A stretch of 64,000 bases of DNA from a virus. The notes under the pieces were generated by a model, which was not told the origin of the DNA, ran no database searches, and saw only the letters and a list, made by a program, of their open reading frames with translations. Location of the stretch: IMG/VR virus record IMGVR_UViG_3300026487_000003; one strand, 5' to 3'. The position numbers and the translations under genes are program-made. Positions 1-64,000 of the stretch are shown piece by piece. Each line of letters begins with the position of its first letter. The stretch's first letter is position 1.

Positions 1-18
1 CCTGTGTAAAGTTAAAAA

Positions 19-267
19 CTACCCTTGACAAAGAATTTCCTCCGATCTAAAGCTCAGATATAAATCCTCCTCCGATCCGTGATCAGCTTCATGACAGTAA
101 TCTGCTGGACAAGTTTGTTCAAATTCATCTAGATAGGATGCACTGCCACAAAACTGGCACTTATAGGGTGGTTTAATATTTGATTGTTCCAAGTCTATCA
201 AAGTGATTTTCTCCTTTAAAAGTGGGTTGTAGTGCATAAACTGTTTTACTTTTATAGCAGGGGTCAT
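19..267 (-). CDS. hypothetical small Cys-rich protein (zinc-ribbon-like)
   Basis: 82-aa ORF co-directional with neighbours; KCQFCG and CPADYC motifs; start uncertain because it overlaps 173..541. Confidence 0.45.
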   Translation of the reverse strand: MTPAIKVKQFMHYNPLLKEKITLIDLEQSNIKPPYKCQFCGSASYLDEFEQTCPADYCHEADHGSEEDLYLSFRSEEILCQG

Positions 268-541
268 TGTCGTCAGGAGGATAATAGTTGTATAACTCCC
301 AAGAGCCGGAATAATTTTTATATAATCTTTTTGTTTCTTCTTGACTTCTTGGTTCCTTAGAATTCTTTAGTCGATCTAAATTTAATCTCTCACTATAACC
401 TTCAAATGAAAGCTTATAAAGCTTACATTCTTGTATAACAGATTCTATATTGACAACATCCTCAACTAAACCATTCCAGATAACAATATCAGGATTTCCT
501 GGTATTTTATTTAATAAATCAATAAGTTTATTCTTTCTCAT
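173..541 (-). CDS. hypothetical protein
   Basis: 122-aa ORF; ATGA start/stop coupling with upstream small ORF. Confidence 0.6.
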   Translation of the reverse strand: MRKNKLIDLLNKIPGNPDIVIWNGLVEDVVNIESVIQECKLYKLSFEGYSERLNLDRLKNSKEPRSQEETKRLYKNYSGSWELYNYYPPDDNDPCYKSKTVYALQPTFKGENHFDRLGTIKY

Positions 542-669
542 TCTGCATTACTCCACATGGATTTACGGTTTCGACGTTGACTGCGCATGTTCTTTGTCTG
601 CTTCTTGATAGCATCCTTTTCAGCACGGTATTCGTAGTCTTTGAATGCTTTAGGGTTTACAGCTTTCAT
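538..669 (-). CDS. hypothetical small basic protein (43 aa)
   Basis: Below the track cutoff. ATG at 669 overlaps the stop of 669..854 (TAATG) and its TGA overlaps the ATG at 541, so it is tightly coupled. Confidence 0.4.
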   Translation of the reverse strand: MKAVNPKAFKDYEYRAEKDAIKKQTKNMRSQRRNRKSMWSNAE

Positions 670-854
670 TATTCTTCCCCTACATAGATAACAGCTTCGC
701 CATCCGCTAGCTTATATGCGATCAGCAGATATCCGTTGTTATCGAAGAAGAATACGAGACCCTTTTCATTCACAGAGATAGTATCGCACAGGATTTCTTC
801 CCATGAACTTTTAGCTGTTCCGTTTACAGAGACAACCTGATAAATCTTGCTCAT
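669..854 (-). CDS. hypothetical protein
   Basis: 61-aa ORF in the co-directional block. Confidence 0.55.
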   Translation of the reverse strand: MSKIYQVVSVNGTAKSSWEEILCDTISVNEKGLVFFFDNNGYLLIAYKLADGEAVIYVGEE

Positions 855-970
855 TTCACATCTCCACAGTTAACTACTACAGTCCACTTACCATTGATTC
901 GGCTAACTTTGTGCTTAACCCCTTGTTGATAAAGTTCAAAGCTCCGGGTAAAAGCTTGTTTGCATGTCAT
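851..970 (-). CDS. hypothetical small protein (39 aa)
   Basis: ATGA-type overlaps at both ends (970/967 and 854/851) fill an otherwise empty gap. Confidence 0.4.
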   Translation of the reverse strand: MTCKQAFTRSFELYQQGVKHKVSRINGKWTVVVNCGDVK

Positions 971-1164
971 TTGTCTTTCACCATTTTAATTTCTACAAGG
1001 ATGACTTCAAAGTTTTCATCCATAAACCAATCTTCACCGAAGATATCTTCCATAGCCTTTAGTGTAACATCGCGAGTCTTATCAGCGGTAAACAAGTATA
1101 CATCATCTCCAGCTTTGTTATGCCCTACCCAATACTTGGGAGTATACTTTTGATCAGCTTTCAT
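967..1164 (-). CDS. hypothetical protein
   Basis: 65-aa ORF; packed 1 nt from the next gene. Confidence 0.6.
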   Translation of the reverse strand: MKADQKYTPKYWVGHNKAGDDVYLFTADKTRDVTLKAMEDIFGEDWFMDENFEVILVEIKMVKDK

Positions 1165-1165
1165 C

Positions 1166-1399
1166 TCAAGCCACCATCTTATTCAATTCAAAATACTTTT
1201 TCACTTCACGCTCCAGCAAAGGCCAGCCGATGAAGAATTCTACAACATCATTTGCATCCTCGATATCCTCGAACACTTGATCATCATAGGTTTGAACGAC
1301 TCGGTCAACTCCCCAACTATCAATGTGATCATTGACCCAAGCAATCGTCACTACACAGTTCAGGGCTTCGATGTTGATGTCTGCGAATTTAACGTTCAT
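1166..1399 (-). CDS. hypothetical acidic protein
   Basis: 77-aa ORF. Confidence 0.6.
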   Translation of the reverse strand: MNVKFADINIEALNCVVTIAWVNDHIDSWGVDRVVQTYDDQVFEDIEDANDVVEFFIGWPLLEREVKKYFELNKMVA

Positions 1400-1449
1400 T
1401 TTCTCTGTCTCTTGGTTTGTGAGCCGCTGTCTGCTTGCTCTGTGTGCTC

Positions 1450-1478
1450 AGTATCTCTCACAGTAGATACCCTGTCAA
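1450..1478 (-). promoter_or_regulatory. candidate sigma70-like promoter (TTGACA-17-GATACT)
   Basis: TTGACA is the reverse complement of 1473-1478 and GATACT of 1450-1455; it lies upstream of 1166..1399. Confidence 0.35.
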
Positions 1479-1574
1479 CACTATTTTCGTAAATCCTTTA
1501 CCGTTCGTCGCCATAGGCCAGCAAGAACATTCCTCATCAGATTTGTGGCAACGTGGACATATAAGAAGAAGCAT
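1458..1574 (-). CDS. hypothetical small Cys-rich protein (38 aa)
   Basis: AGGAG 6 nt upstream of the ATG at 1574; CPRCH...CSC motif. Confidence 0.35.
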   Translation of the reverse strand: MLLLICPRCHKSDEECSCWPMATNGKGFTKIVLTGYLL

Positions 1575-1587
1575 ATCTATCTCCTAA

Positions 1588-1767
1588 TTAAATTCCAAAC
1601 TCTTTGGCTGCTTTACTCATCAGGCAACCGAGTGCCTTATTCTGCATCACAACCTTATTCCTGTCAACAACTTGCCAGCAAGCTTCTTTCTCATTTTTGA
1701 TTACTTGGAATCCTGCTTGGGTAAGAGTTCGTTGGGTGGAAGAAGTGAAGGTGGTCCACTTGTGCAT
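1588..1767 (-). CDS. hypothetical protein (59 aa)
   Basis: ORF just under the track cutoff that fills the gap between 1574 and 1771. Confidence 0.45.
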   Translation of the reverse strand: MHKWTTFTSSTQRTLTQAGFQVIKNEKEACWQVVDRNKVVMQNKALGCLMSKAAKEFGI

Positions 1768-1770
1768 TTA

Positions 1771-1950
1771 TTAATCAATCCAAGTTAATTTAGCGATACG
1801 AGCATTCTTTACAAAAACACTTTGAAGGGCTTGATGCTTATTATCAAGGCACTCATCATAGGTAGAAGGTTGGGTTACATAGATTTCTGGTTCAAAACCA
1901 CACTCAAGCTGATGATATTCAACAAACAGCACAAAGTATTCAGTTTTCAT
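1771..1950 (-). CDS. hypothetical protein
   Basis: Track ORF 1771..1971. The internal ATG at 1950 (MKTEYF) is preceded by GAGGAGG and is the likelier start. Confidence 0.55.
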   Translation of the reverse strand: MKTEYFVLFVEYHQLECGFEPEIYVTQPSTYDECLDNKHQALQSVFVKNARIAKLTWID

Positions 1951-1951
1951 A

Positions 1952-2128
1952 TCACACCTCCTCAACAGCACGTTTAGCTATCATTGAATCCAGCTTAGGA
2001 ATGTACTCGAACATCTCACCAGTAGTCAAGCAGCGGGCAGTGTAGGATTCACAGTACATCTCGCCGTCCTCCTCAACAACGATTGCTTCAATTTCGTAGC
2101 CAAGGTATTCAAAGTTAACGATTGTCAT
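1952..2128 (-). CDS. hypothetical protein (58 aa)
   Basis: AGGAGA 6 nt upstream of the ATG at 2128; its stop lies 1 nt before the next ATG. Confidence 0.45.
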   Translation of the reverse strand: MTIVNFEYLGYEIEAIVVEEDGEMYCESYTARCLTTGEMFEYIPKLDSMIAKRAVEEV

Positions 2129-2351
2129 GGTATTTCTCCTGAAACTCTAGAATGAATTGCCGGTAATCTTTGTTCTCTTGAGACAGATTATGAAGCTCAT
2201 CCTCGGTTATGTCAACCCATGTCGCTATGAAATTATTCATTGCAATTTCTGATCGAAATTCAATAGCTGATAGCAAATCTATATGGGCACATTTACGGTC
2301 TTCGTTGTCGTTGGTTGGGATTGTGTCAAGCAAGTCTTTCAGAGAGTACAT
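2115..2351 (-). CDS. hypothetical protein
   Basis: Track ORF 2115..2402. The start at 2351 (MYSLKDLL) minimises overlap with the deaminase gene. Confidence 0.5.
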   Translation of the reverse strand: MYSLKDLLDTIPTNDNEDRKCAHIDLLSAIEFRSEIAMNNFIATWVDITEDELHNLSQENKDYRQFILEFQEKYHDNR

Positions 2352-2722
2352 TCTAGCACCTGTATGTTCTTCATTTTGAGTATCATGGCGCAGCTTGGGC
2401 ACGGATTACTAGGAAGCAAGTCACCTTTCCTACCAACTCTCACGATAGTGGCCCTATAAGCCTTGTGGTGAGGTTTTAGCTTGATGCAAGCACCTAGCTC
2501 AGCGTGGACATAACAACGCTCTGAATCGAATCCTGTGGCCTCTGAGAGACGTTTCTGCAAAGGGTGCGTACAAGTGTAGTCGTTAACACCTGTGGAAAGA
2601 ATCCTACCACGCTTATCCGATATAATACAAGCCACTCTCTGGAAGCCTTTGACGTTCGGAAGCTCAAGGGCAAGGGCTTTAGCACGGTCGATTAGTGTCT
2701 TCATTGCGTTTCGACTCGCCAT
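2339..2722 (-). CDS. cytidine/dCMP deaminase-like zinc enzyme
   Basis: HAE zinc/catalytic motif (CYVHAELGA) and downstream PCPSC motif at the spacing typical of the CDA fold. Confidence 0.7.
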   Translation of the reverse strand: MASRNAMKTLIDRAKALALELPNVKGFQRVACIISDKRGRILSTGVNDYTCTHPLQKRLSEATGFDSERCYVHAELGACIKLKPHHKAYRATIVRVGRKGDLLPSNPCPSCAMILKMKNIQVLECTL

Positions 2723-2927
2723 AAATCAGATTAGTAACTTCTGCCGACATAGCAGCCCACTCATCACCCCAATACTTCAGGATAGGGTAGGGTAGATCGC
2801 TGTAGCTAAGCGCTGAGATAAACCCCAAGAACTGCTGACAGATTGCGTCCTTAGCGTAGCTGTTTGTGTGCAAATCAAAATCACGACGGTATTGTTCGAG
2901 ACGGGCGATGACGGCTTCTGTGTTCAT
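2679..2927 (-). CDS. hypothetical protein
   Basis: Track ORF 2679..2987. The ATG at 2927 (MNTEAVI) is preceded by GAGGAA and avoids overlap with 2938..3423. Confidence 0.5.
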   Translation of the reverse strand: MNTEAVIARLEQYRRDFDLHTNSYAKDAICQQFLGFISALSYSDLPYPILKYWGDEWAAMSAEVTNLIYGESKRNEDTNRPC

Positions 2928-2937
2928 TTCAATTTCC

Positions 2938-3423
2938 TCAGACGATCTTCTTAAAGGTTGATTTGATGTTAGACTCAATCTCTTCACTTGTCAACAACCC
3001 ACTGAACCATTCTCCCACCAATCTTTGCTTTTTGAACAAAGAGTGAAGAGATTTTTCAATCTCTCTTGCAGGCTGGTTTACTTTCCATACAGACGCCAGC
3101 TTCACAGGCAGACCCATAGCACAAGAAATAGCAGCAGCACGGGTCTTAGGATTCTTGCTGATTCCAATTTTTGAATTACCTGTACTATCACAATGGATGA
3201 GATACAGAAACTGATTGTCGTCCTTGTAATCTTTGAATTTTGAAAACCTCGCAAGTAAGGAGTTAGCAAGGTTGGAATCAATGTCCTTTCTCTCGTTTTT
3301 CCTAGCCCAACCTTTGACATTCGTTATTCCAAAAGCAATAAATTCCTCATTAGTCATCGCAAATTTGATCCCACCGTCTGCGGTCAAGCCGTTGCGTGCT
3401 TTCATATAATCATCTAGCTTCAT
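2938..3423 (-). CDS. T5orf172 / GIY-YIG-like domain nuclease (putative free-standing homing endonuclease)
   Basis: FLYLIHC...SKIGIS...R...GEWF motif set typical of T5orf172; AAGGAG 7 nt upstream of the ATG at 3423. Confidence 0.7.
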   Translation of the reverse strand: MKLDDYMKARNGLTADGGIKFAMTNEEFIAFGITNVKGWARKNERKDIDSNLANSLLARFSKFKDYKDDNQFLYLIHCDSTGNSKIGISKNPKTRAAAISCAMGLPVKLASVWKVNQPAREIEKSLHSLFKKQRLVGEWFSGLLTSEEIESNIKSTFKKIV

Positions 3424-3862
3424 TACCAATCTCCTTTAAATGGTATTCAGATTTACATTCCACTGAGTTCTGAAATTAAGGTAAAAAGACCCCTAACCCG
3501 TGGCCATACGCTTCTTAAGAACCCTGCGGCTCTCTGCGCTTCGACCTAGGTCAGAGTCTATTCCTTTTAAGAACTCAGTGTCAACCCCATGGACTGAATT
3601 TCTTCAGCATTCCACTTGAGACTTCAACAAATCCTACGAAGCATGGGTACATTCATAGGCAAGGGGTTAGCACAGGTTTACAAGGCGGCTAACCTTCGGT
3701 ATCATTTTTACGACCTTGATCGCTGTCACTCAGTCCATACCTTTTCGACCAGACTGTGCTTTGTGGTGACTCCGTGGTAAGCTTTAAGTCTAAGGCGCCC
3801 GTTGCATTTCTGACCCCACCAAAGACCGAGCAAACAAGTACCATTGCTGTTAAATGTTCACG
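3424..3862 (-). ncRNA. structured ~430-nt leader RNA, copy A of a 3-member family
   Basis: No ORF of 60 aa or more in any frame. Shares motifs and compensatory helices with 34481-34891 and 63627-64000, and ends in GAACTCAGTGGAATG about 30 nt before the RBS. Confidence 0.55.
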
Positions 3863-3868
3863 ACACCA

Positions 3869-3896
3869 ATTATACTAGCTTTTCCCCAAACGTCTA
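3869..3896 (-). promoter_or_regulatory. sigma70-like promoter TAGACG-16-TATAAT for leader A / T5orf172
   Basis: TATAAT is the reverse complement of 3869-3874 and TAGACG of 3891-3896. Confidence 0.5.
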
Positions 3897-4021
3897 CACA
3901 ATTCTCTCTATAGCTCACCAACTCCTAATAAAATCTTTCAATCAAAATTCCCCTTGCATCCTCATCAGATCGTGGTAATTTAGACCTATCGAAAGCAAAT
4001 CAACCTGATGAGGTGAGTGAG

Positions 4022-4735
4022 ATGTCTTTTAATGTCGGAGAAATCATCAACATTGACGCCCCTTTGATGAGGCTTGAGCGTAAGCATCCAGGCTTTGAAG
4101 GCGCTATCAAGATCGGTAAGCGTGACTTCAAGAGCTACTTAACCTATCGCTTTGTAAAGGATTCTATCAGCTTTATTCCGATCAAGGACGTCAACGAATC
4201 TTTGACGGACGCATCTACTATGATCCGTGCGCCTATTCCTAAGACGGAAGAAGATTTCCTAGGTTACATCCATGAGCTGGGTCACTGTAAGGCTAAGCAG
4301 TATAGGTCTAGCCGACAATCCTTTATGGGTATGTACATCAGTGTTGACAAGGCTTGTGTAGAGAATGAAGTGAATGCTTGGCACTGGGGTTTGCGCTACT
4401 ACCGCCGGCTGGGCATGAAGCTGTCCGAGCAAGGTCGTAAACTTATCTGTAAGACTCTGGGTAGCTACCTGAAAATAGCGACTGACAAGGATCATGCCAA
4501 GTCTTGCTCTGAGAGGATCAAGAATTTGACAGGGTTGAGTTACGAAGATTACGTTCCTAAAGAGAAAGACAGAGTAACACCAAGCTTGACAATTACTATT
4601 GACTGGGGTGACATTAAGCCAGTCAATGACTACTGTCTACCAAAGAAAGAGGTTGTGCAGACTGTTGACAAGCGAAAGCCTTGGGTTAGACTGAAAGAAA
4701 AGCAACAGAAACGTCAGTGGAGAAATCAGAGATGA
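4022..4735 (+). CDS. putative zinc metallopeptidase (HExxH)
   Basis: IHELGH motif with downstream NEVNAW; GAGGTGAG upstream of the ATG at 4022 (track start 4013 is GTG). Confidence 0.55.
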   Translation: MSFNVGEIINIDAPLMRLERKHPGFEGAIKIGKRDFKSYLTYRFVKDSISFIPIKDVNESLTDASTMIRAPIPKTEEDFLGYIHELGHCKAKQYRSSRQSFMGMYISVDKACVENEVNAWHWGLRYYRRLGMKLSEQGRKLICKTLGSYLKIATDKDHAKSCSERIKNLTGLSYEDYVPKEKDRVTPSLTITIDWGDIKPVNDYCLPKKEVVQTVDKRKPWVRLKEKQQKRQWRNQR

Positions 4736-5588: not shown

Positions 5589-5773
5589 ACAGTAAAATGG
5601 ACAAAGACCTTATGACAATTCTTCGCTATATCGATTCGTGCTATCTACCATCGCACCATAAAATCTGTGTACGAATGGTGGAGCAATATGGTAAGCTTCA
5701 TGACATTGATGTATTCGGTCTGGCAATGTTGGTGGATGCTTTGGAAGCTAAAGGGGGATATGATGAAATCTAA
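5585..5773 (+). CDS. hypothetical protein
   Basis: 62-aa ORF. Confidence 0.55.
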   Translation: MNSKMDKDLMTILRYIDSCYLPSHHKICVRMVEQYGKLHDIDVFGLAMLVDALEAKGGYDEI

Positions 5774-5975
5774 TATCACTATCGGTGTTGAGTTTCTGGC
5801 TGGTACAAGTTTCATTACTGCGATTGAGGAAGCTAAACAAAAGGCTCAAGAGTGGAATGTTGCATTTGTTAAATTTGATTTTAACGGTCGCAAGATTTCA
5901 GTGAGTCAACATGCTGATCTTGAGCAACTTGCAGAAGATTGGAAAGACTGGTCTCGTAACTATTTGGTGGGGTGA
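5760..5975 (+). CDS. hypothetical protein
   Basis: Track ORF 5667..5975. The ATG ATG at 5760 is preceded by AAGGGGG; the W-rich N-terminal extension looks spurious. Confidence 0.5.
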   Translation: MMKSNITIGVEFLAGTSFITAIEEAKQKAQEWNVAFVKFDFNGRKISVSQHADLEQLAEDWKDWSRNYLVG

Positions 5976-9135: not shown

Positions 9136-11268
9136 ATGACTGACTTTATTAAGGGTGATTGGATTTTTGATATTGAAACTTACCCCAACGTGTTCACTTT
9201 CTGCGCCGTTTACGCTAATGGCAAGGGTGTTCGAGTATTTGAGGTAAGTGATCGTAAGAATGAAATTGAGCAAGTTCTGGATTTTCTACGCAAAGTTGTA
9301 TCTAACAAGCATCGCCTAGTCGGCTTTAACAACGTAGGTTTTGATTATCCAGTTCTGCATCACATTCTTGAGAAAGCACGCAAGGCATTTAAAGCAGGAA
9401 AGAAAGTAAAGATCACTGCTACTGAAATCTATGATGTGGCAATGAATCTTATTAACTCACAGAGAGATGAGAAGTTTGGTAATGCAATCAAACCTAAGGA
9501 TGTAATAATTCCGCAGGTTGATTTGTATAAGGTTCATCATTTTGATAACAAGGCTCGGGCAACTTCTCTTAAGATGCTTGAGTTTAATATGCGGTCAGAG
9601 ACAATTGAGGATTTACCTTTTCCAGTGGGAACAGAGCTAAACTCAATTCAGATTGATACTCTGATTCACTATAACAAACACGATGTCATGGAAACCCTGC
9701 GTTTCTACCATCACTCAGTTAAAGCTTTGAAGTTTCGTGAAGAACTAACACAGAAGTATGGGTTTGATTGCACTAACTTTAATGACACCAAGATTGGTAA
9801 GCAGTATTTTATCAATCGTCTTGAAAGTGAAATGCCAGGAAGCTGCTACAAGGTTGGTAAATATGGTCGTACAATCAATCAAACTAAGCGGGACGTGATC
9901 CATCTAAAGGATGCGATCCTACCTTACATTAAATACGAACGACCAGAGTTTAACGCTCTGCTAAATTGGTTCAAAAAGCAGAGTATCACTGAGACCAAAG
10001 GTGTCTTCACTGACATTTTGGAAAGCGATCTTGGTCCAGAGCTTGCACAGTATGCACAGCTACACACCAAACGTAAGAAGCTGTTTAAAGCCCCTACAGA
10101 GGCTCAGATTGAAGAGTTCAAGAAAGACAAACCTCTGTGTTGGGTTGAAGAGATTGAGCTTAAGGGAAAGGAAACAAAGGCTAATGGAGGCGGTCAGAAG
10201 AAAGCTTATTGGCTGTATTGGAATGTAGCAGAAACATTGAACGTGGTTGTAGATGGGTTTCGACTAGATTTTGGTACTGGTGGTATTCACGGTAGCGTAG
10301 AGTCAAGAATTGTGCGCTCTGATGAGCGTCAAGTTATTGACGATCGAGATGTTGCCAGCTACTACCCCAACCTTGCAATCTCGAATGATGTTTACCCTAA
10401 GCACTTGGGTAAGAACTTCTGTAAGATTTATAAGGACGTTTATGATGAGCGCAAGAGTTTTCCGAAAGGTAGCCCAGAAAATGCGGTAATGAAATTGGCA
10501 CTCAATGGGGTATATGGCGATAGCAACAGTGAGTTCAGTCCGTTCTTCGACGCACTCTACACTATGACTATCACAATCTCAGGTCAGCTTTCACTTTGTA
10601 TGTTGATTGAAAAGCTGTTGAAAGTTAAAGACTTAACAATGGTTCAAGCTAACACTGATGGTATTACTTTCAAGCACAACCGAAGTGATGATCTAGTAGT
10701 TGACAAGATTGTAAAAGACTGGGAGAATGTTACCAAGCTTGAGATGGAAAGGAATGACTACTCAATGATGGCTATTAGGGATGTAAATTCTTACACGGCG
10801 ATTTATGAAAAGGATGGGTCAGTTAAACGTAAAGGTGCCTATGAGTATGCTGGTTTGGACTGGAACAAAAATCACAGTTCTCTAGTAATCCCAATGGCTG
10901 CTGAGCACGAGATTCTAGGTAAAGGTAAGGCTGAAGACTTTATCAAAGGCCATAAGAATAAGTGGGATTTTCTCCTACGTACCAAGGTGCCTCGTAATTC
11001 CAGTCTCGTGCTTGTTATGGACGATGGTGAGGAACTAAAGCAGCAGAACATTTGTCGATACTATCCATCTGAGGAAGGTGGTAAGCTTGTAAAGCTAATG
11101 CCTGCGCTTGCTGGTAAAGAAGCTGAAGGTGATCGCAGGCTTTCTATTGATAGCGACTGGAAGGTTAAGACTTGCAACAAGATTGAACAGTTTGATTGGG
11201 ATGATCTAAACTATGATTACTACATTAAGGAAGCTCGCAAACTTATTGACCCATTGATTAAGGAGTAA
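9136..11268 (+). CDS. DNA polymerase with N-terminal 3'-5' exonuclease (family-B-like motifs)
   Basis: Exo motifs DIET, NNVGFD and YNKHD; polymerase motifs DVASYYPN, KLALNGVYG and NTDG. Confidence 0.85.
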   Translation: MTDFIKGDWIFDIETYPNVFTFCAVYANGKGVRVFEVSDRKNEIEQVLDFLRKVVSNKHRLVGFNNVGFDYPVLHHILEKARKAFKAGKKVKITATEIYDVAMNLINSQRDEKFGNAIKPKDVIIPQVDLYKVHHFDNKARATSLKMLEFNMRSETIEDLPFPVGTELNSIQIDTLIHYNKHDVMETLRFYHHSVKALKFREELTQKYGFDCTNFNDTKIGKQYFINRLESEMPGSCYKVGKYGRTINQTKRDVIHLKDAILPYIKYERPEFNALLNWFKKQSITETKGVFTDILESDLGPELAQYAQLHTKRKKLFKAPTEAQIEEFKKDKPLCWVEEIELKGKETKANGGGQKKAYWLYWNVAETLNVVVDGFRLDFGTGGIHGSVESRIVRSDERQVIDDRDVASYYPNLAISNDVYPKHLGKNFCKIYKDVYDERKSFPKGSPENAVMKLALNGVYGDSNSEFSPFFDALYTMTITISGQLSLCMLIEKLLKVKDLTMVQANTDGITFKHNRSDDLVVDKIVKDWENVTKLEMERNDYSMMAIRDVNSYTAIYEKDGSVKRKGAYEYAGLDWNKNHSSLVIPMAAEHEILGKGKAEDFIKGHKNKWDFLLRTKVPRNSSLVLVMDDGEELKQQNICRYYPSEEGGKLVKLMPALAGKEAEGDRRLSIDSDWKVKTCNKIEQFDWDDLNYDYYIKEARKLIDPLIKE

Positions 11269-33714: not shown

Positions 33715-34416
33715 CTATCCTTTAACAGGAGGACCTGAAACAGAGGGGCCTGATTGGACACCTGAATGAACGTGGGCATCAAGGATTACACCATTGCTCA
33801 CAACCATGCCTGTGTTGATGAAAGCTCCATTGTGGGTAATATCACCTGTCCAAGTAGTCTCAGGGGCATTTACCTCAACGGCTACATCTGTATTGATTAT
33901 AAGCTTCCCAGATTCGCTCAGACGCAATTCTACCTCTACCCCACTACCTAGGTTATGGGCTACCACCAAATCGTGTGTAGAGTGGGGCCAGCGGCGTTTA
34001 GCGGGGTTGTTTGGAGCGCGTCCTACCGGGAAAACACCAGGGATTGCAACACAGTCTTTAATATCAAACATTCGATAGTCTGTAGGAGTAGACGCATAAC
34101 CATTACTACCTTTCCAGGCTGTCAGACCACGTTGACTGAATACAAGCAATACAGGATCACCAGGATTGAGCGGAAAGGTGATAGCACTAGTAGATGATGC
34201 AGGAAACACTACAGGTACATTCAGGATAGGAGGACGTTCTTGTGAGCTGCCATCATAGCCCTTGAAATTAATAGCAATCTGAACATCTACCTGCTGCCCT
34301 TGTAAGTCATTGATTGTACGAATTACAAAGCCAGGAACACAGGTATTCATCTGCTCAAGGTGATGCTCTACAGCAGATTGCAACGTCTCCTGAAGTGATA
34401 TCTCTTGATCTGCCAC
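33715..34416 (-). CDS. baseplate central spike (gpV / Gp138-N-like)
   Basis: PGFV...VDVQ N-terminal OB-like motif and C-terminal HVHSG...GP motif. GTG at 34416 lies 6 nt after AGGAGA; the track start 34455 is unlikely. Confidence 0.65.
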   Translation of the reverse strand: MADQEISLQETLQSAVEHHLEQMNTCVPGFVIRTINDLQGQQVDVQIAINFKGYDGSSQERPPILNVPVVFPASSTSAITFPLNPGDPVLLVFSQRGLTAWKGSNGYASTPTDYRMFDIKDCVAIPGVFPVGRAPNNPAKRRWPHSTHDLVVAHNLGSGVEVELRLSESGKLIINTDVAVEVNAPETTWTGDITHNGAFINTGMVVSNGVILDAHVHSGVQSGPSVSGPPVKG

Positions 34417-34445
34417 ACAGTTTCTCCTAAAGGTGTTGACAGGAG

Positions 34446-34474
34446 AGAAATTCACCTGTACAATGGTTAATACA
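34446..34474 (+). promoter_or_regulatory. near-consensus sigma70 promoter TTGACA-17-TACAAT
   Basis: TTGACA at 34446-34451, 17-nt spacer, TACAAT at 34469-34474; points away from the spike gene into leader B. Confidence 0.65.
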
Positions 34475-34480
34475 TTTTGA

Positions 34481-34891
34481 AAGTCTAACGGAAAACGACA
34501 TTCTTTCGAATCGGTGTTGGATGGGGGCTAACTGTACACAGCGTCCAGCACTTAAAGCATACTGGGAGAGCTACTAACAATGCAGTCTCTAGTCGAAAGA
34601 AGGAAGAGACGGTAGCAGCGTGTGAGAACGTATAAAAGTCCTTCAACTAAGGTAATCTCATTAAACCCTTAGCTCGGCATAGACGTACCCGTGCGATCTA
34701 TGTTAACCTTAAGTCTCAAGTGGAATGGCAGATAATCTGCTTCTCACGGGGGAGTTCTGGAATCGAGATTGACCGAAGCTTAGGTCTTAGGCTGATTAAG
34801 TTCAGTATGGCCTTTGCTTAGGAGTAATCTATCTCGAATTCTTAGAACTCAGTGGAATGATTAAATACTAAATAACTTAAGGAGAGTGATT
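34481..34891 (+). ncRNA. structured ~405-nt leader RNA, copy B of a 3-member family
   Basis: No ORF of 60 aa or more. Long-range helix 34762-34779 with 34841-34860; hairpins at 34595-34620 and 34738-34750; a 28-nt block at 34794-34821 is identical to 63721-63748 on the opposite strand. Confidence 0.6.
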
Positions 34892-56053: not shown

Positions 56054-56375
56054 ATTTCTAACACCTATATTATTAACTACTTATGTTTAGGTGCTTTAAG
56101 ATTTATAGTGCTAAAGCTACACTTCAAAATCTCGCTTCCATGCTGACTAAAAGGAAGGGTTAAAAAGTGTATAAAGAATTGGTGAAGACTGACCACGCTA
56201 CCTATGTCGTCTTCTCGCAAGGCCATTCTGCCCGCCTCTCCGCACCTGACTTTGCGTCAGGAAGTTTTCTTCTCTTTAATTCGAGCCTCTGCTTTGCGCA
56301 AAAGACAGAGAAGTTTGATTTTGAAACAAGTATAGTGGTAGTAGTATTTTGAACGTTTGGCTTTTTCTAAGACGT

Positions 56376-56543
56376 TCACCACCATCTCCGGCCTGAAGGT
56401 CCGGCATAGTTTAGAATGATCACAACCAATAGAACCACAAACAATACTTTAACAATAGTCAGAGCTGTCCCGGCAAGAGCACCTAGGCCGAGAAGTGGTG
56501 CTAGTAAAGCAACTAGCAGGAAAATCAGGATAAGGTTAATCAT
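56376..56543 (-). CDS. small membrane protein (55 aa)
   Basis: AAGGAA upstream of the ATG at 56543; two hydrophobic segments. Confidence 0.4.
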   Translation of the reverse strand: MINLILIFLLVALLAPLLGLGALAGTALTIVKVLFVVLLVVIILNYAGPSGRRWW

Positions 56544-56618
56544 TTTTATTTCCTTCTATCTTGGAAATCCCTATCTCTTTATTTTATCCTTTCCTAAAAA
56601 TACTTAAAAACACTCTTA

Positions 56619-56645
56619 GGAAAAGATGAGCCCGTTCGTGGGCTC
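56619..56645 (-). terminator. rho-independent terminator after the AP2 gene
   Basis: GAGCCC-ACGAAC-GGGCTC hairpin followed by ATCTTTTCC. Confidence 0.6.
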
Positions 56646-56700
56646 AGACGGATTGTAGTCAATCACCCATCAGCCGAAAGGAGAGGAACGACTGAATTCT

Positions 56701-63257: not shown

Positions 63258-63626
63258 TCAATTATTCAAAATACCAACTTTCAACAGGAAGGATTCTAAT
63301 GATTTAGAATGGTAATATTTATTTTTACCAGCTTGTCCCCATTTACCAGTACCTGGATAATAGTGAAACTTTCCTTTAATCAGCCACATTCCCATTCTAA
63401 GCAACTCACTATCTCCTATACCTAAATCTACTGCTTTGACAGCAAAGCCATAATCTGCTTTAGCCGTCTTACGCCAAGCCATTGAATGATTTCCTGTTGC
63501 TAAGGCTGATGATACCATCTCATCATTTATGTATGTTATTAGTTCCTCACCCATGGTAATTAAATCAAATGCAATCCAATTACCCGTCTTATTCATTACT
63601 TCCTTTTGAAGACTGTTTACTTTCAT
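63258..63626 (-). CDS. hypothetical protein downstream of leader copy C
   Basis: 122-aa ORF with AGGAG 7 nt upstream; no recognisable motif. Confidence 0.55.
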   Translation of the reverse strand: MKVNSLQKEVMNKTGNWIAFDLITMGEELITYINDEMVSSALATGNHSMAWRKTAKADYGFAVKAVDLGIGDSELLRMGMWLIKGKFHYYPGTGKWGQAGKNKYYHSKSLESFLLKVGILNN

Positions 63627-64000
63627 CTCTTAACTCCTATGTTTATTTATTTCTTAATTCTTTATATCTCTTATCATACTGAGAGTTCTGTGTAGGAAGG
63701 ATAGAGAAGTCCCTATACCCGCCATACTGAACTTAATCAGCCTAAGACGAGTATAGCGCTCTATCCTTCTCAATGCAACACATCATACTGATGAGACTGC
63801 GTTAGGCCGTCAATGTGGACGGAACGGATGGTTGTCATTCCACCATTTCTGGTGTAGCCTCTGACGCTATAACAACCTTCGAGATCAGCTTGGGCTTGTC
63901 AGAACCTATCTTCATACCCTTTAAGTAGCAGCCGGTGAGTGAATGCTTTCGCTGACATATCTCTCTGCTACCGATTAGCCTTACGCTAAAAATCATACTC
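63627..64000 (-). ncRNA. structured leader RNA, copy C (5' part beyond the window)
   Basis: 28-nt block 63721-63748 identical to 34794-34821; a perfect 11-bp helix 63696-63706 with 63759-63769 encloses it; no ORF of 60 aa or more. Confidence 0.55.

Follow-up and report, generated by a model that had tools for sequence, protein, structure and literature searches.

The 64,000-nt stretch of viral DNA analysed here (IMG/VR record IMGVR_UViG_3300026487_000003; in the following, the window) contains three copies, A, B, and C, of a large structured leader RNA. Copy C (63997 to 63640, minus strand, ~360 nt), which lies at the far end of the window and is followed by an open reading frame (ORF) of 122 amino acids (aa), is the main subject of this analysis. 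The copies belong to what we regard as a new, uncatalogued family of structured phage leader RNAs, set apart from known systems by failing their testable defining features, with ~19 distinct members of ~340-470 nt in two clades of uncultured myovirus-like phages. The members share a conserved and complex RNA fold. Each RNA furthermore carries the same 8-13-nt single-stranded motif twice, just 5' and just 3' of its 3' domain, and these two unpaired segments covary by identity. A full-text literature search returned neither a description of this leader family nor a precedent for covariation by identity. The parts of copy C are the following:

63640-63997, minus strand: leader RNA copy C, delimited by the promoter in the overlapping contig L001, folding, and covariation
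63919-63989, minus strand: universal 5' module, present in every member found
63989-63975, minus strand: hairpin H1, then AUCGG
63972-63965, minus strand: 5' strand of helix H2, GGUAGCAG
63931-63924, minus strand: 3' strand of H2, CUGCUACU
63924-63919, minus strand: UUAAAG
63834-63854, minus strand: GAAA-capped hairpin CACCA-GAAA-UGGUG plus conserved GAAUGA, including GGTGGAATGAC; compensatory changes relative to L083
63782-63799, minus strand: internal twin motif UCAGUAUGAU (63791-63782) with its 5' flank CAGUCUCA
63696-63769, minus strand: 3' hairpin domain of predicted helices with compensatory changes, which also holds a UUAGG/UAU internal loop and an apical CUGA/UCAG hairpin
63769-63759 with 63706-63696, minus strand: outer 11-bp helix
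63756-63751 with 63718-63713, minus strand: helix Hb, CUAUAC/GUAUAG
63749-63746 with 63723-63720, minus strand: helix Hc, CGUC/GGCG
63748-63721, minus strand: 28-nt block identical to paralog B, inside the 3' domain
63673-63688, minus strand: GAACUC flank (63688-63683) and 3' twin motif UCAGUAUGAU (63682-63673)
63673, minus strand: 3' limit of the structured part, set by the 3' twin motif, then an AU-rich tail to the ribosome-binding site (RBS)
63627-63672, minus strand: AU-rich spacer and Shine-Dalgarno sequence AGGAG (63638-63634)
63258-63626, minus strand: 122-aa cargo ORF, a small phage protein family

All three copies in the window fold more stably than shuffled sequences (z-scores of -2.4 to -3.3), with copy C at -3.0 and none of 100 shuffles as stable. 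At the 5' end, the order of elements is common to all members and comprises the H1 hairpin, (A/C)UCG, H2, and an invariant UUAAAG straight after H2. The sequence of H2 differs widely (GGUCU/AGACU in A, GGUGU/GCACU in B, GGUAG/CUACU in C, ACCUU/AAGGU in L012, and GCACUG/CAGUGU in clade 2), with changes on both sides in seven of its eight pairs and 100% of cells paired. A preliminary description of copy C had taken the 3' domain alone to be confidently homologous to A and B; the presence of H1, AUCGG, H2, and UUAAAG extends this homology to the 5' module. RNAs of the A/B/L043 type additionally form helices H3-H8, each with at least three sequence solutions, and a pseudoknot that joins the loop of H7 to a strand past H8 (CCCAUG/CAUGGG, CCCGUG/CACGGG, or CCUGUG/CACAGG).

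The 3' domain is a long hairpin, the innermost closing helix of which (Hc) again covaries (GGUC/GGCC, CGUC/GGCG, AGUC/GGCU, and UGUC/GGCA). The asymmetric loop inside this helix, 5'-U(U)AGG/UAU-3', is conserved, and we take it to resemble the 11-nt GNRA-tetraloop receptor (CCUAAG/UAUGG); GAAA loops occur elsewhere in the RNAs of the family. The outer helix of copy C, GAAGGATAGAG/CTCTATCCTTC, is indeed a perfect 11-bp helix, and the idea that a different closing helix surrounds the same core was borne out, as the difference represents genuine helix covariation and C is truly homologous to A and B. The 28-mer GTCTTAGGCTGATTAAGTTCAGTATGGC within this core is found exactly twice in the window (0 expected), at the position on the minus strand that had been noted for it in copy C and, in B, at 34784-34811 on the plus strand instead of 34794-34821. 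Similarity ends at these 28 nt, and the identity is thus not part of a larger duplication. Within this one genome, the 28/28 match of B and C looks like the outcome of short-patch gene conversion or genome-specific selection.

The most informative comparison for copy C is that with its closest relative, L083 (84% identical), in which several C-specific helices are backed by compensatory change. From C to L083, H2 changes from GGUAGCAG/CUGCUACU to GGACACAG/CUGUGUCU, Hb from CUAUAC/GUAUAG to CCAAGG/CCUUGG, and the GNRA-capped hairpin from CACCA/UGGUG to CAUGC/GCAUG, with the L083 form, CAUGC-UGUAA-GCAUG plus GAAUGA, standing in the same place; the hairpin that follows next likewise shows compensatory change. 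The apical hairpin of the 3' domain is altered as well (CUGA/UCAG to CAGA/UCUG), so the 28-nt block is not universally fixed. The same comparison clarifies GGUGGAAUGAC, which had been likened to the internal AGUGGAAUG of A and B. It is not the counterpart of the latter, but constitutes the 3' strand of the covarying GNRA-capped hairpin together with the conserved GAAUGA, and GGTGGAATGAC lies at 63834-63844 and not at 63847-63857, where it was initially placed. The true counterpart of AGUGGAAUG is C's own twin motif, UCAGUAUGAU.

As a MAFFT alignment of all types was out of register in the 3' half, covariation was assessed on subfamily alignments and in a hand-curated table of helices. In the latter, 194 of 194 pairs are canonical within RNAs, as compared to 60.5% when strands are crossed between RNAs. 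Compensatory changes were found by RNAalifold in 19 of 51, 21 of 36, and 13 of 60 predicted pairs of three alignments. Among seven C-type RNAs, scored on the alignment from which their structure was derived, 94.4% of cells are paired (79.7% in shuffles; 0/500) and 21 pairs show double changes (8.2 in shuffles; 0/500), and pairing falls to 31-45% when partners are slid by 1-3 columns.

The twin motif follows a flank such as AGUCUCA at its internal position and GAACUC(A) at its 3' position, where in copy C the GAACTC at 63683-63688 was correctly located 45 nt ahead of AGGAG and the ATG at 63626. The two copies are 71-152 nt apart. Eleven variants of the motif were found, always at the same two structural positions:

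A and B: AGUGGAAUG
L012: AGUGGCAAG
L043: AGUUUGGAUGG
C: UCAGUAUGAU
L083: (A)UCAGAAUGAG, at both places
L032: AACACAAUG
L087: AACAGAAU
L074: CCAGUGUGCAGAG
L064: UGAGCAUGA
L086: UCUGAGCAUAUU
L066 and L067: GUGUAUGGA

Taken singly, the twin repeats reach p values of ~0.007-0.13 against shuffles. Between C and L083, the same two substitutions have occurred in both twin copies. Moreover, L032 and L087 are 97% identical and differ at 10 positions in 327 nt, two of which are the same C-to-G change, one in each twin copy; by a rough estimate, the chance of this concerted change is ~0.003. Because of the constant structural position and these two cases of concerted change, a chance origin of the repeats is untenable. 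An AUG is present near the 3' end in seven of the 11 variants (P~3e-4, for variants that are not independent), and in L066 and L067 the downstream ORF starts at the AUG of the 3' twin copy. Complement scans and RNAduplex comparisons with shuffles detected no complement of the motif in cis, and such complements are even depleted in B and L032.

Several accounts of the motif were considered and rejected. Pairing of the twin copies with each other as a quasi-palindrome is not significant (mean z of -0.33). The motif AUG does not appear to start a conserved leader peptide, as short ORFs are not conserved and substitutions follow RNA pairing. Finally, the repeats do not behave as a target-site duplication around an inserted 3' domain: the pseudoknot and helices cross the edge of such an insert with covariation, and there is no member without the domain. 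Two further occurrences of motif sequence were noted in the window. A third, partial copy of the C motif, AGUAUGAU, is located at 63999-63992 (minus strand), right at the presumed start of the RNA, and has no equivalent there in L083 or in A and B. An extra AGTGGAATG, that is, the A/B motif in the same sense, lies at 5851-5859 (plus strand) inside the plus-strand ORF 5667-5975 and is probably due to chance (~0.24 expected per strand).

The extent of copy C follows from contig L001, which overlaps the window at 100% identity and runs past position 64000. It contains a promoter, TTGACG-17-TGTATAAT, at would-be coordinates 64031-64004, so that its end is 4 nt past the window edge. From these boxes, transcription would start at ~63997 and the RNA would be essentially complete in the window. 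The suggestion that the 5' part and the promoter lie past the window edge is hence right for the promoter, which alone is outside, and wrong for the 5' part, which is inside. Neither is the region the 3' end of a coding gene, since the gene upstream of copy C is divergent (112 aa, on the opposite strand at L001 9153-9491), and no open stretch in any of the six frames of the copy C region exceeds 74 codons. In a second contig, L002, the source annotation calls a 68-aa gene at 9586-9792 (= window ~64041-63835, minus strand), which starts upstream of the -10 box and crosses the 5' half of the leader. In view of the RNA covariation across the same stretch, this call is very probably spurious.

Comparable putative promoters, strong and sigma-70-like, directly precede all three copies of the window, and near-consensus sigma-70-type -35 and -10 boxes are visible in the member sequences read, usually at the junction of divergent genes; in the window, the upstream gene is divergent for A (4013-4735, plus strand) and B (33715-34455, minus strand) as it is for C. 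A structured pattern of 22 bases matches the window exactly three times, namely in A, B, and C (0 expected). The paralogs are laid out as follows:

3430-3866, minus strand: paralog A, then a T5orf172/MUG113 ORF (3429-2938)
3616-3608 and 3464-3456, minus strand: twin motif of A, AGUGGAAUG
34470-34892, plus strand: paralog B, then a frameshifted HNH_3 gene (34893-35450)
34719 and 34851, plus strand: twin motif of B, AGUGGAAUG

Relatives, all of them metagenomic and yielding small alignments, were gathered by way of neighbouring proteins, which led to related phage contigs, and then by nhmmer, motif scans, and one pattern scan of IMG/VR; the pattern used for the metagenome and genome scans proved too strict. 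The members found group as follows:

A-like: L078
B-like: L005 and L012
Third type: L043
C-like: L083, L032, and L087 (plus identical copies of L087)
Very divergent: L074, in the C slot of a relative with a 95% identical 458-aa protein
Clade 2 (~104-kb phages with a primase that is only 30% identical): L064-L067, L072, L073, L086, L090, and L093

Every element of the full architecture (promoter, UCG-H2-UUAAAG, 3' domain between twin motifs, AU-rich spacer, and RBS) is present in copy C. This architecture recurs in A, B, L005, L012, L032, L043, L064-L067, L072, L074, L078, L083, L086, L087, and L090, with L012 lacking the RBS and an ORF. Matches in IMG/VR to exact or degenerate A/B DNA patterns (L004, L006-L008, L075, L077, L079-L081) were mostly chance hits in coding sequence and were discarded. 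No family in Rfam matched the whole window at the gathering score, or B, C, and the clade-2 member L065 at E<=10, and a 'distant' blastn search with A and B gave no match in 50,697 cultured phage records.

Two observations on leader diversity were made along the way. In the relatives L015 (~7680 to 7105), L014 (~7550 to 6985), and L057 (~3670 to 3095; all minus strand), the primases of which are 98-100% identical to that of the window at the protein level, slot A holds a different and seemingly unrelated stretch of ~550 nt, which is conserved and ORF-free. It is nearly identical among the three, has a loosely repeated CAACAA(A)CCA..UAU motif and no Rfam match at E<=1, and is followed by varying first genes (a DenV-like or a Cys-rich ORF); it may represent a second class of large leader RNA. 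In L032, the L087-like leader contains an inserted module (1888 to 1800, minus strand) with a second A/B-type UCGG-H2-UUAAAG unit and a hairpin, and leaders thus appear to grow by module insertion or duplication.

Downstream of the RNA, no terminator intervenes before the RBS; an AU-rich spacer, the RBS, and a variable first gene follow. The genes behind the leaders are:

B-type, window: frameshifted HNH_3 gene
B-type, L005: 99-aa protein, the N-terminus of which resembles a signal peptide; DNA 92% identical as far as the start codon
B-type, L012: no ORF after the leader; a phrog_953 HNH gene upstream instead
A-type, window: T5orf172/MUG113 ORF (163 aa)
A-type, L078: phrog_953 HNH gene downstream
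C-type, window: 122-aa ORF
C-type, L083: 27-aa ORF
C-type, L032 and L087: phrog_681 endonuclease
Clade 2: small non-nuclease ORFs

In the swapped pairs A/L078 and B/L005, similarity continues through the AU-rich tail to the Shine-Dalgarno region. Among close relatives, homology at slots A and C is lost at the -35 box of the leader or a few bases ahead of it, and a different leader with different genes lies past the break. The view of copy C as the leader of its 122-aa ORF is therefore too narrow: the same leaders stand before other ORFs or none, and homologs of the 122-aa protein occur without a leader, so that leader and ORF do not form a unit. The promoter-RNA-RBS module and the cargo genes are exchanged modularly, and we infer that the 122-aa ORF is one such exchangeable cargo. 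An HNH or T5orf172-type gene is found within ~1 kb of seven of nine clade-1 RNA loci, and homing endonucleases probably gather at the RNA gene because it offers them a landing site that is conserved and well expressed.

Two peculiarities of these downstream regions deserve mention. The HNH_3/AP2-like gene behind B (34893-35450, plus strand) is split between two frames around an A7 run (...CAGATAAAAAAATACACC...), which could reflect a pseudogene, an assembly error, or programmed slippage. In L083, a second strong promoter (TTGACA-17-TAGAAT) precedes the next gene ~100 nt past the leader, after the 27-aa ORF, which suggests tandem early promoters in this phage.

The 122-aa protein encoded at 63258-63626 had been described as lacking any recognisable motif and as non-nuclease-looking. 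Both statements hold: profile searches of Pfam and of PDB sequences returned nothing relevant, and there is no evidence of a cryptic nuclease in the modelled structure. The exact protein is encoded on eight public contigs, including L001. A word-indexed search of 5.8 billion proteins retrieved no homolog; full HMMER searches gave seven remote ones, of which one sits in an operon without any leader. While an AlphaFold model from the single sequence was unusable (predicted local distance difference test, pLDDT, of 46.8), the model built with homologs (eight sequences) reached a pLDDT of 88.2 and predicts a helical N-terminal half and a small beta-sheet. Foldseek searches with this model gave no PDB neighbour (best E of 1.4), and its matches in BFVD comprise two uncharacterised phage proteins only. 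A hit to ExoX-like_C (GKYKGKS...YYAWVL; Pfam E=2e-4) was traced to the C-terminal extension of one remote homolog, P0004, that is absent from the window protein.

As to function, we favour, with a probability of roughly 0.4, a cis-acting expression leader in which the twin motif is bound by one partner in trans that couples the fold to the translation or processing of the first cistron. The element would act as RNA in cis, serving early phage genes as a portable expression module made up of promoter, leader, and RBS. The two motif copies might serve as identical docking sites for a single trans-acting partner, be it RNA or protein, and occupancy of the 3' copy beside the RBS versus the internal copy inside the fold could set translation, processing, or stability of the first cistron. 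Homing endonuclease genes would repeatedly have settled beside an RNA of this kind owing to its conservation and good expression. A cis-acting leader is preferred because similarity reaches the Shine-Dalgarno region in the two swapped pairs, the 3' copy lies next to or within initiation regions, and the motif is enriched in AUG. Its position after the promoters recalls HK022 putL/putR and lambda nutL/nutR, which likewise are cis-acting RNAs right after the early promoters of divergent operons with several copies per phage. However, put comprises ~70 nt with two stem-loops, whereas the leader is five times larger, and no twin motif is known for put; terminator-like sites downstream of the leaders are no commoner than in shuffles. 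Concerning riboswitches or T-boxes, there is no Rfam match and no terminator after the RNA, and the Shine-Dalgarno sequence is not consistently paired; a single 4-bp helix to GAGA, predicted by RNAalifold, was considered unreliable.

A number of points speak against this reading. The RNA of L012 has no ORF behind it and can thus exist without a cistron to control, and paralog B drives a pseudogene only. The fold is far more elaborate than a stabiliser of messenger RNA or a translational enhancer requires, and no strong intrinsic terminators that would call for antitermination were found downstream. No complement that would mark a partner of the twin motif was found on either strand of the window or in the loci of relatives, nor, beyond the occurrences given above, any further copy of it. 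Furthermore, the promoters and the transcription start are assigned by their likeness to the consensus, and the covariation statistics come from 4-7 sequences, with structures partly derived from the same alignments.

An alternative is a stand-alone noncoding RNA that acts in trans, being freed from the transcript's 5' end (for instance, when the AU-rich tail is cleaved) and using its two identical, exposed motifs as bivalent seeds or as a sponge for host or phage RNA in host takeover or anti-defence, with the ORFs just exploiting its promoter. This would agree with the orphan leader of L012 and with cargo that is unrelated from case to case, as well as with a motif that is single-stranded, shuns pairing in cis, and evolves fast with its copies still identical. 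Likewise, several paralogs with different motifs in one genome (A/B versus C) and tertiary-structure features typical of stable RNAs would be expected. We nevertheless consider it somewhat unlikely, as no terminator or defined 3' end is visible, no target was found among the phage sequence searched, and the similarity up to the RBS in two swapped pairs as well as the start-codon overlap in L066/L067 point to coupling with translation. Among known systems, P4 CI and P1 c4 are also structured leader RNAs flanked by short duplicated sequences (seqA, seqC) and act by base pairing, but the P4 duplicates pair with an internal seqB, whereas the leader has no complementary segment in cis. ROOL and GOLLD are comparable in that they, too, are large and highly structured, are carried by phages, are patchily distributed, and have no known function; in contrast to them, the leader is smaller, is followed by an RBS, is not located beside tRNA genes, and has no match to their Rfam models (nor to OLE). 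Less probable still is a self-processing ribozyme ahead of selfish or early genes, GIR1-like or splicing-like, with the twin motifs as reaction sites (CUCA|motif). A size of 340-470 nt, the pseudoknot, GNRA loops, and the receptor-like UAGG/UAU loop are typical of such RNAs, the sequences at both boundaries of one domain are identical, and HNH or T5orf172 homing endonuclease genes often adjoin, as they do in phage group I introns; the GIR1 ribozyme, by which an endonuclease mRNA is processed at its 5' end, offers a precedent. Yet Rfam models of group I and II introns, GIR1, and small self-cleavers gave no match at E<=10, with the reservation that the Intron_gpI model misses some subgroups and the absence of a match is weak negative evidence. 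In addition, the leaders begin at a promoter, have no exons, and are situated neither in a gene nor in a (twin-ribozyme) intron, with divergent genes or promoters upstream of all three window copies; an internal guide complementary to the motif is missing, and many members precede genes other than endonucleases, including all clade-2 cargo.

The nuclease neighbourhood itself might suggest a HEARO-like mobile unit, in which the RNA would serve the nuclease, for example as a guide, as a repair template, or in an expression control specific to homing endonucleases, and copy C would be what is left of a unit after loss of its nuclease. Like HEARO (IscB omega-RNA), the leader is a large structured RNA immediately 5' of an often HNH-bearing ORF in mobile, patchy contexts, and the phrog_953 HNH gene accompanies it both in L078, downstream, and in L012, upstream. 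We regard this as improbable, though: the same RNA type precedes three unrelated families of small, DNA-binding homing enzymes of the ordinary kind, none with RuvC or another guide-RNA-using domain, or else a non-nuclease ORF or none at all; endonucleases accompany none of the clade-2 RNAs; and the presence of an HNH gene now on one side of the RNA, now on the other, is more in keeping with a homing site than with a nuclease cofactor. Unlike HEARO, moreover, the family shows no match to the Rfam HEARO model, no RuvC/IscB protein (~400-500 aa with RuvC and HNH), an own sigma-70 promoter, and no transposon ends. Least credible of all is an element that works at the DNA level, be it a replication origin, a recombination site with target-site duplications or attachment cores around the 3' domain, or an insertion akin to miniature inverted-repeat transposable elements. 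It could account for direct repeats of 8-13 bp around a hairpin-forming segment and for the AT-rich tract past a strong promoter; the phage does encode a T7-type primase-helicase and PolA, and recombination mechanisms enforce identical cores. On the other hand, many helices contain G-U pairs, which are C-A mismatches on the other strand, the covarying pseudoknot of A and B ties the supposed insert to outside sequence, so that the parts have long co-evolved, the terminal helices differ between copies, unlike transposon ends, every member has the 3' domain, and no recombinase is associated.

It is rare to find a large, conserved RNA with many helices whose function is unknown, and such RNAs have time and again opened the way to new biochemistry, such as ribozymes, guide RNAs, and RNA cages. 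The present family stands out by occurring in several paralogs per phage genome and in at least two phage clades, by moving as a promoter-RNA-RBS cassette, and by attracting homing endonucleases. Covariation by identity between two unpaired segments is unusual and implies a specific partner or reaction. In the boldest, and rather doubtful, interpretation, the leaders would form a 'twin-address' RNA class, that is, a conserved, ribozyme-sized scaffold that displays two copies of a fast-evolving specificity sequence of 8-13 nt, which are kept identical by selection; such an RNA could either act as a bivalent, programmable, RNA-guided regulator or process itself at two matched reaction sites, heading early operons and doubling as a homing platform for several endonuclease families. 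In more practical terms, the promoter-leader-RBS module is possibly useful as a compact expression part. For annotation, intergenic regions of this kind (~400-500 nt) are not empty, and ORF calls inside them, such as the 68-aa call in C, are unwarranted.

The myovirus-like phage of the window encodes, besides the T7-type primase-helicase and PolA, a ribonucleotide reductase as well as proteins of the terminase, portal, capsid, and baseplate. Identity between its TerL and Pseudomonas phage proteins is only ~46%, and ARAGORN detected no tRNA or tmRNA in the window. An ORF-poor region of ~650 nt at 56060-56700 (minus strand) follows a good terminator-like hairpin (56646-56627) and comprises an unlisted, membrane-protein-like ORF of ~55 aa (MINLILIFLLVALL...) and then ~330 nt with hairpins; it is unlike the leader family. 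The leftward operon behind leader A (window 1-4200, minus strand) contains 16 near-consensus TTGACA-17-xAxxxT promoters, as compared to 8.4 expected, at least five of which have TTGACA, a richness typical of an early region that depends on the host RNA polymerase.

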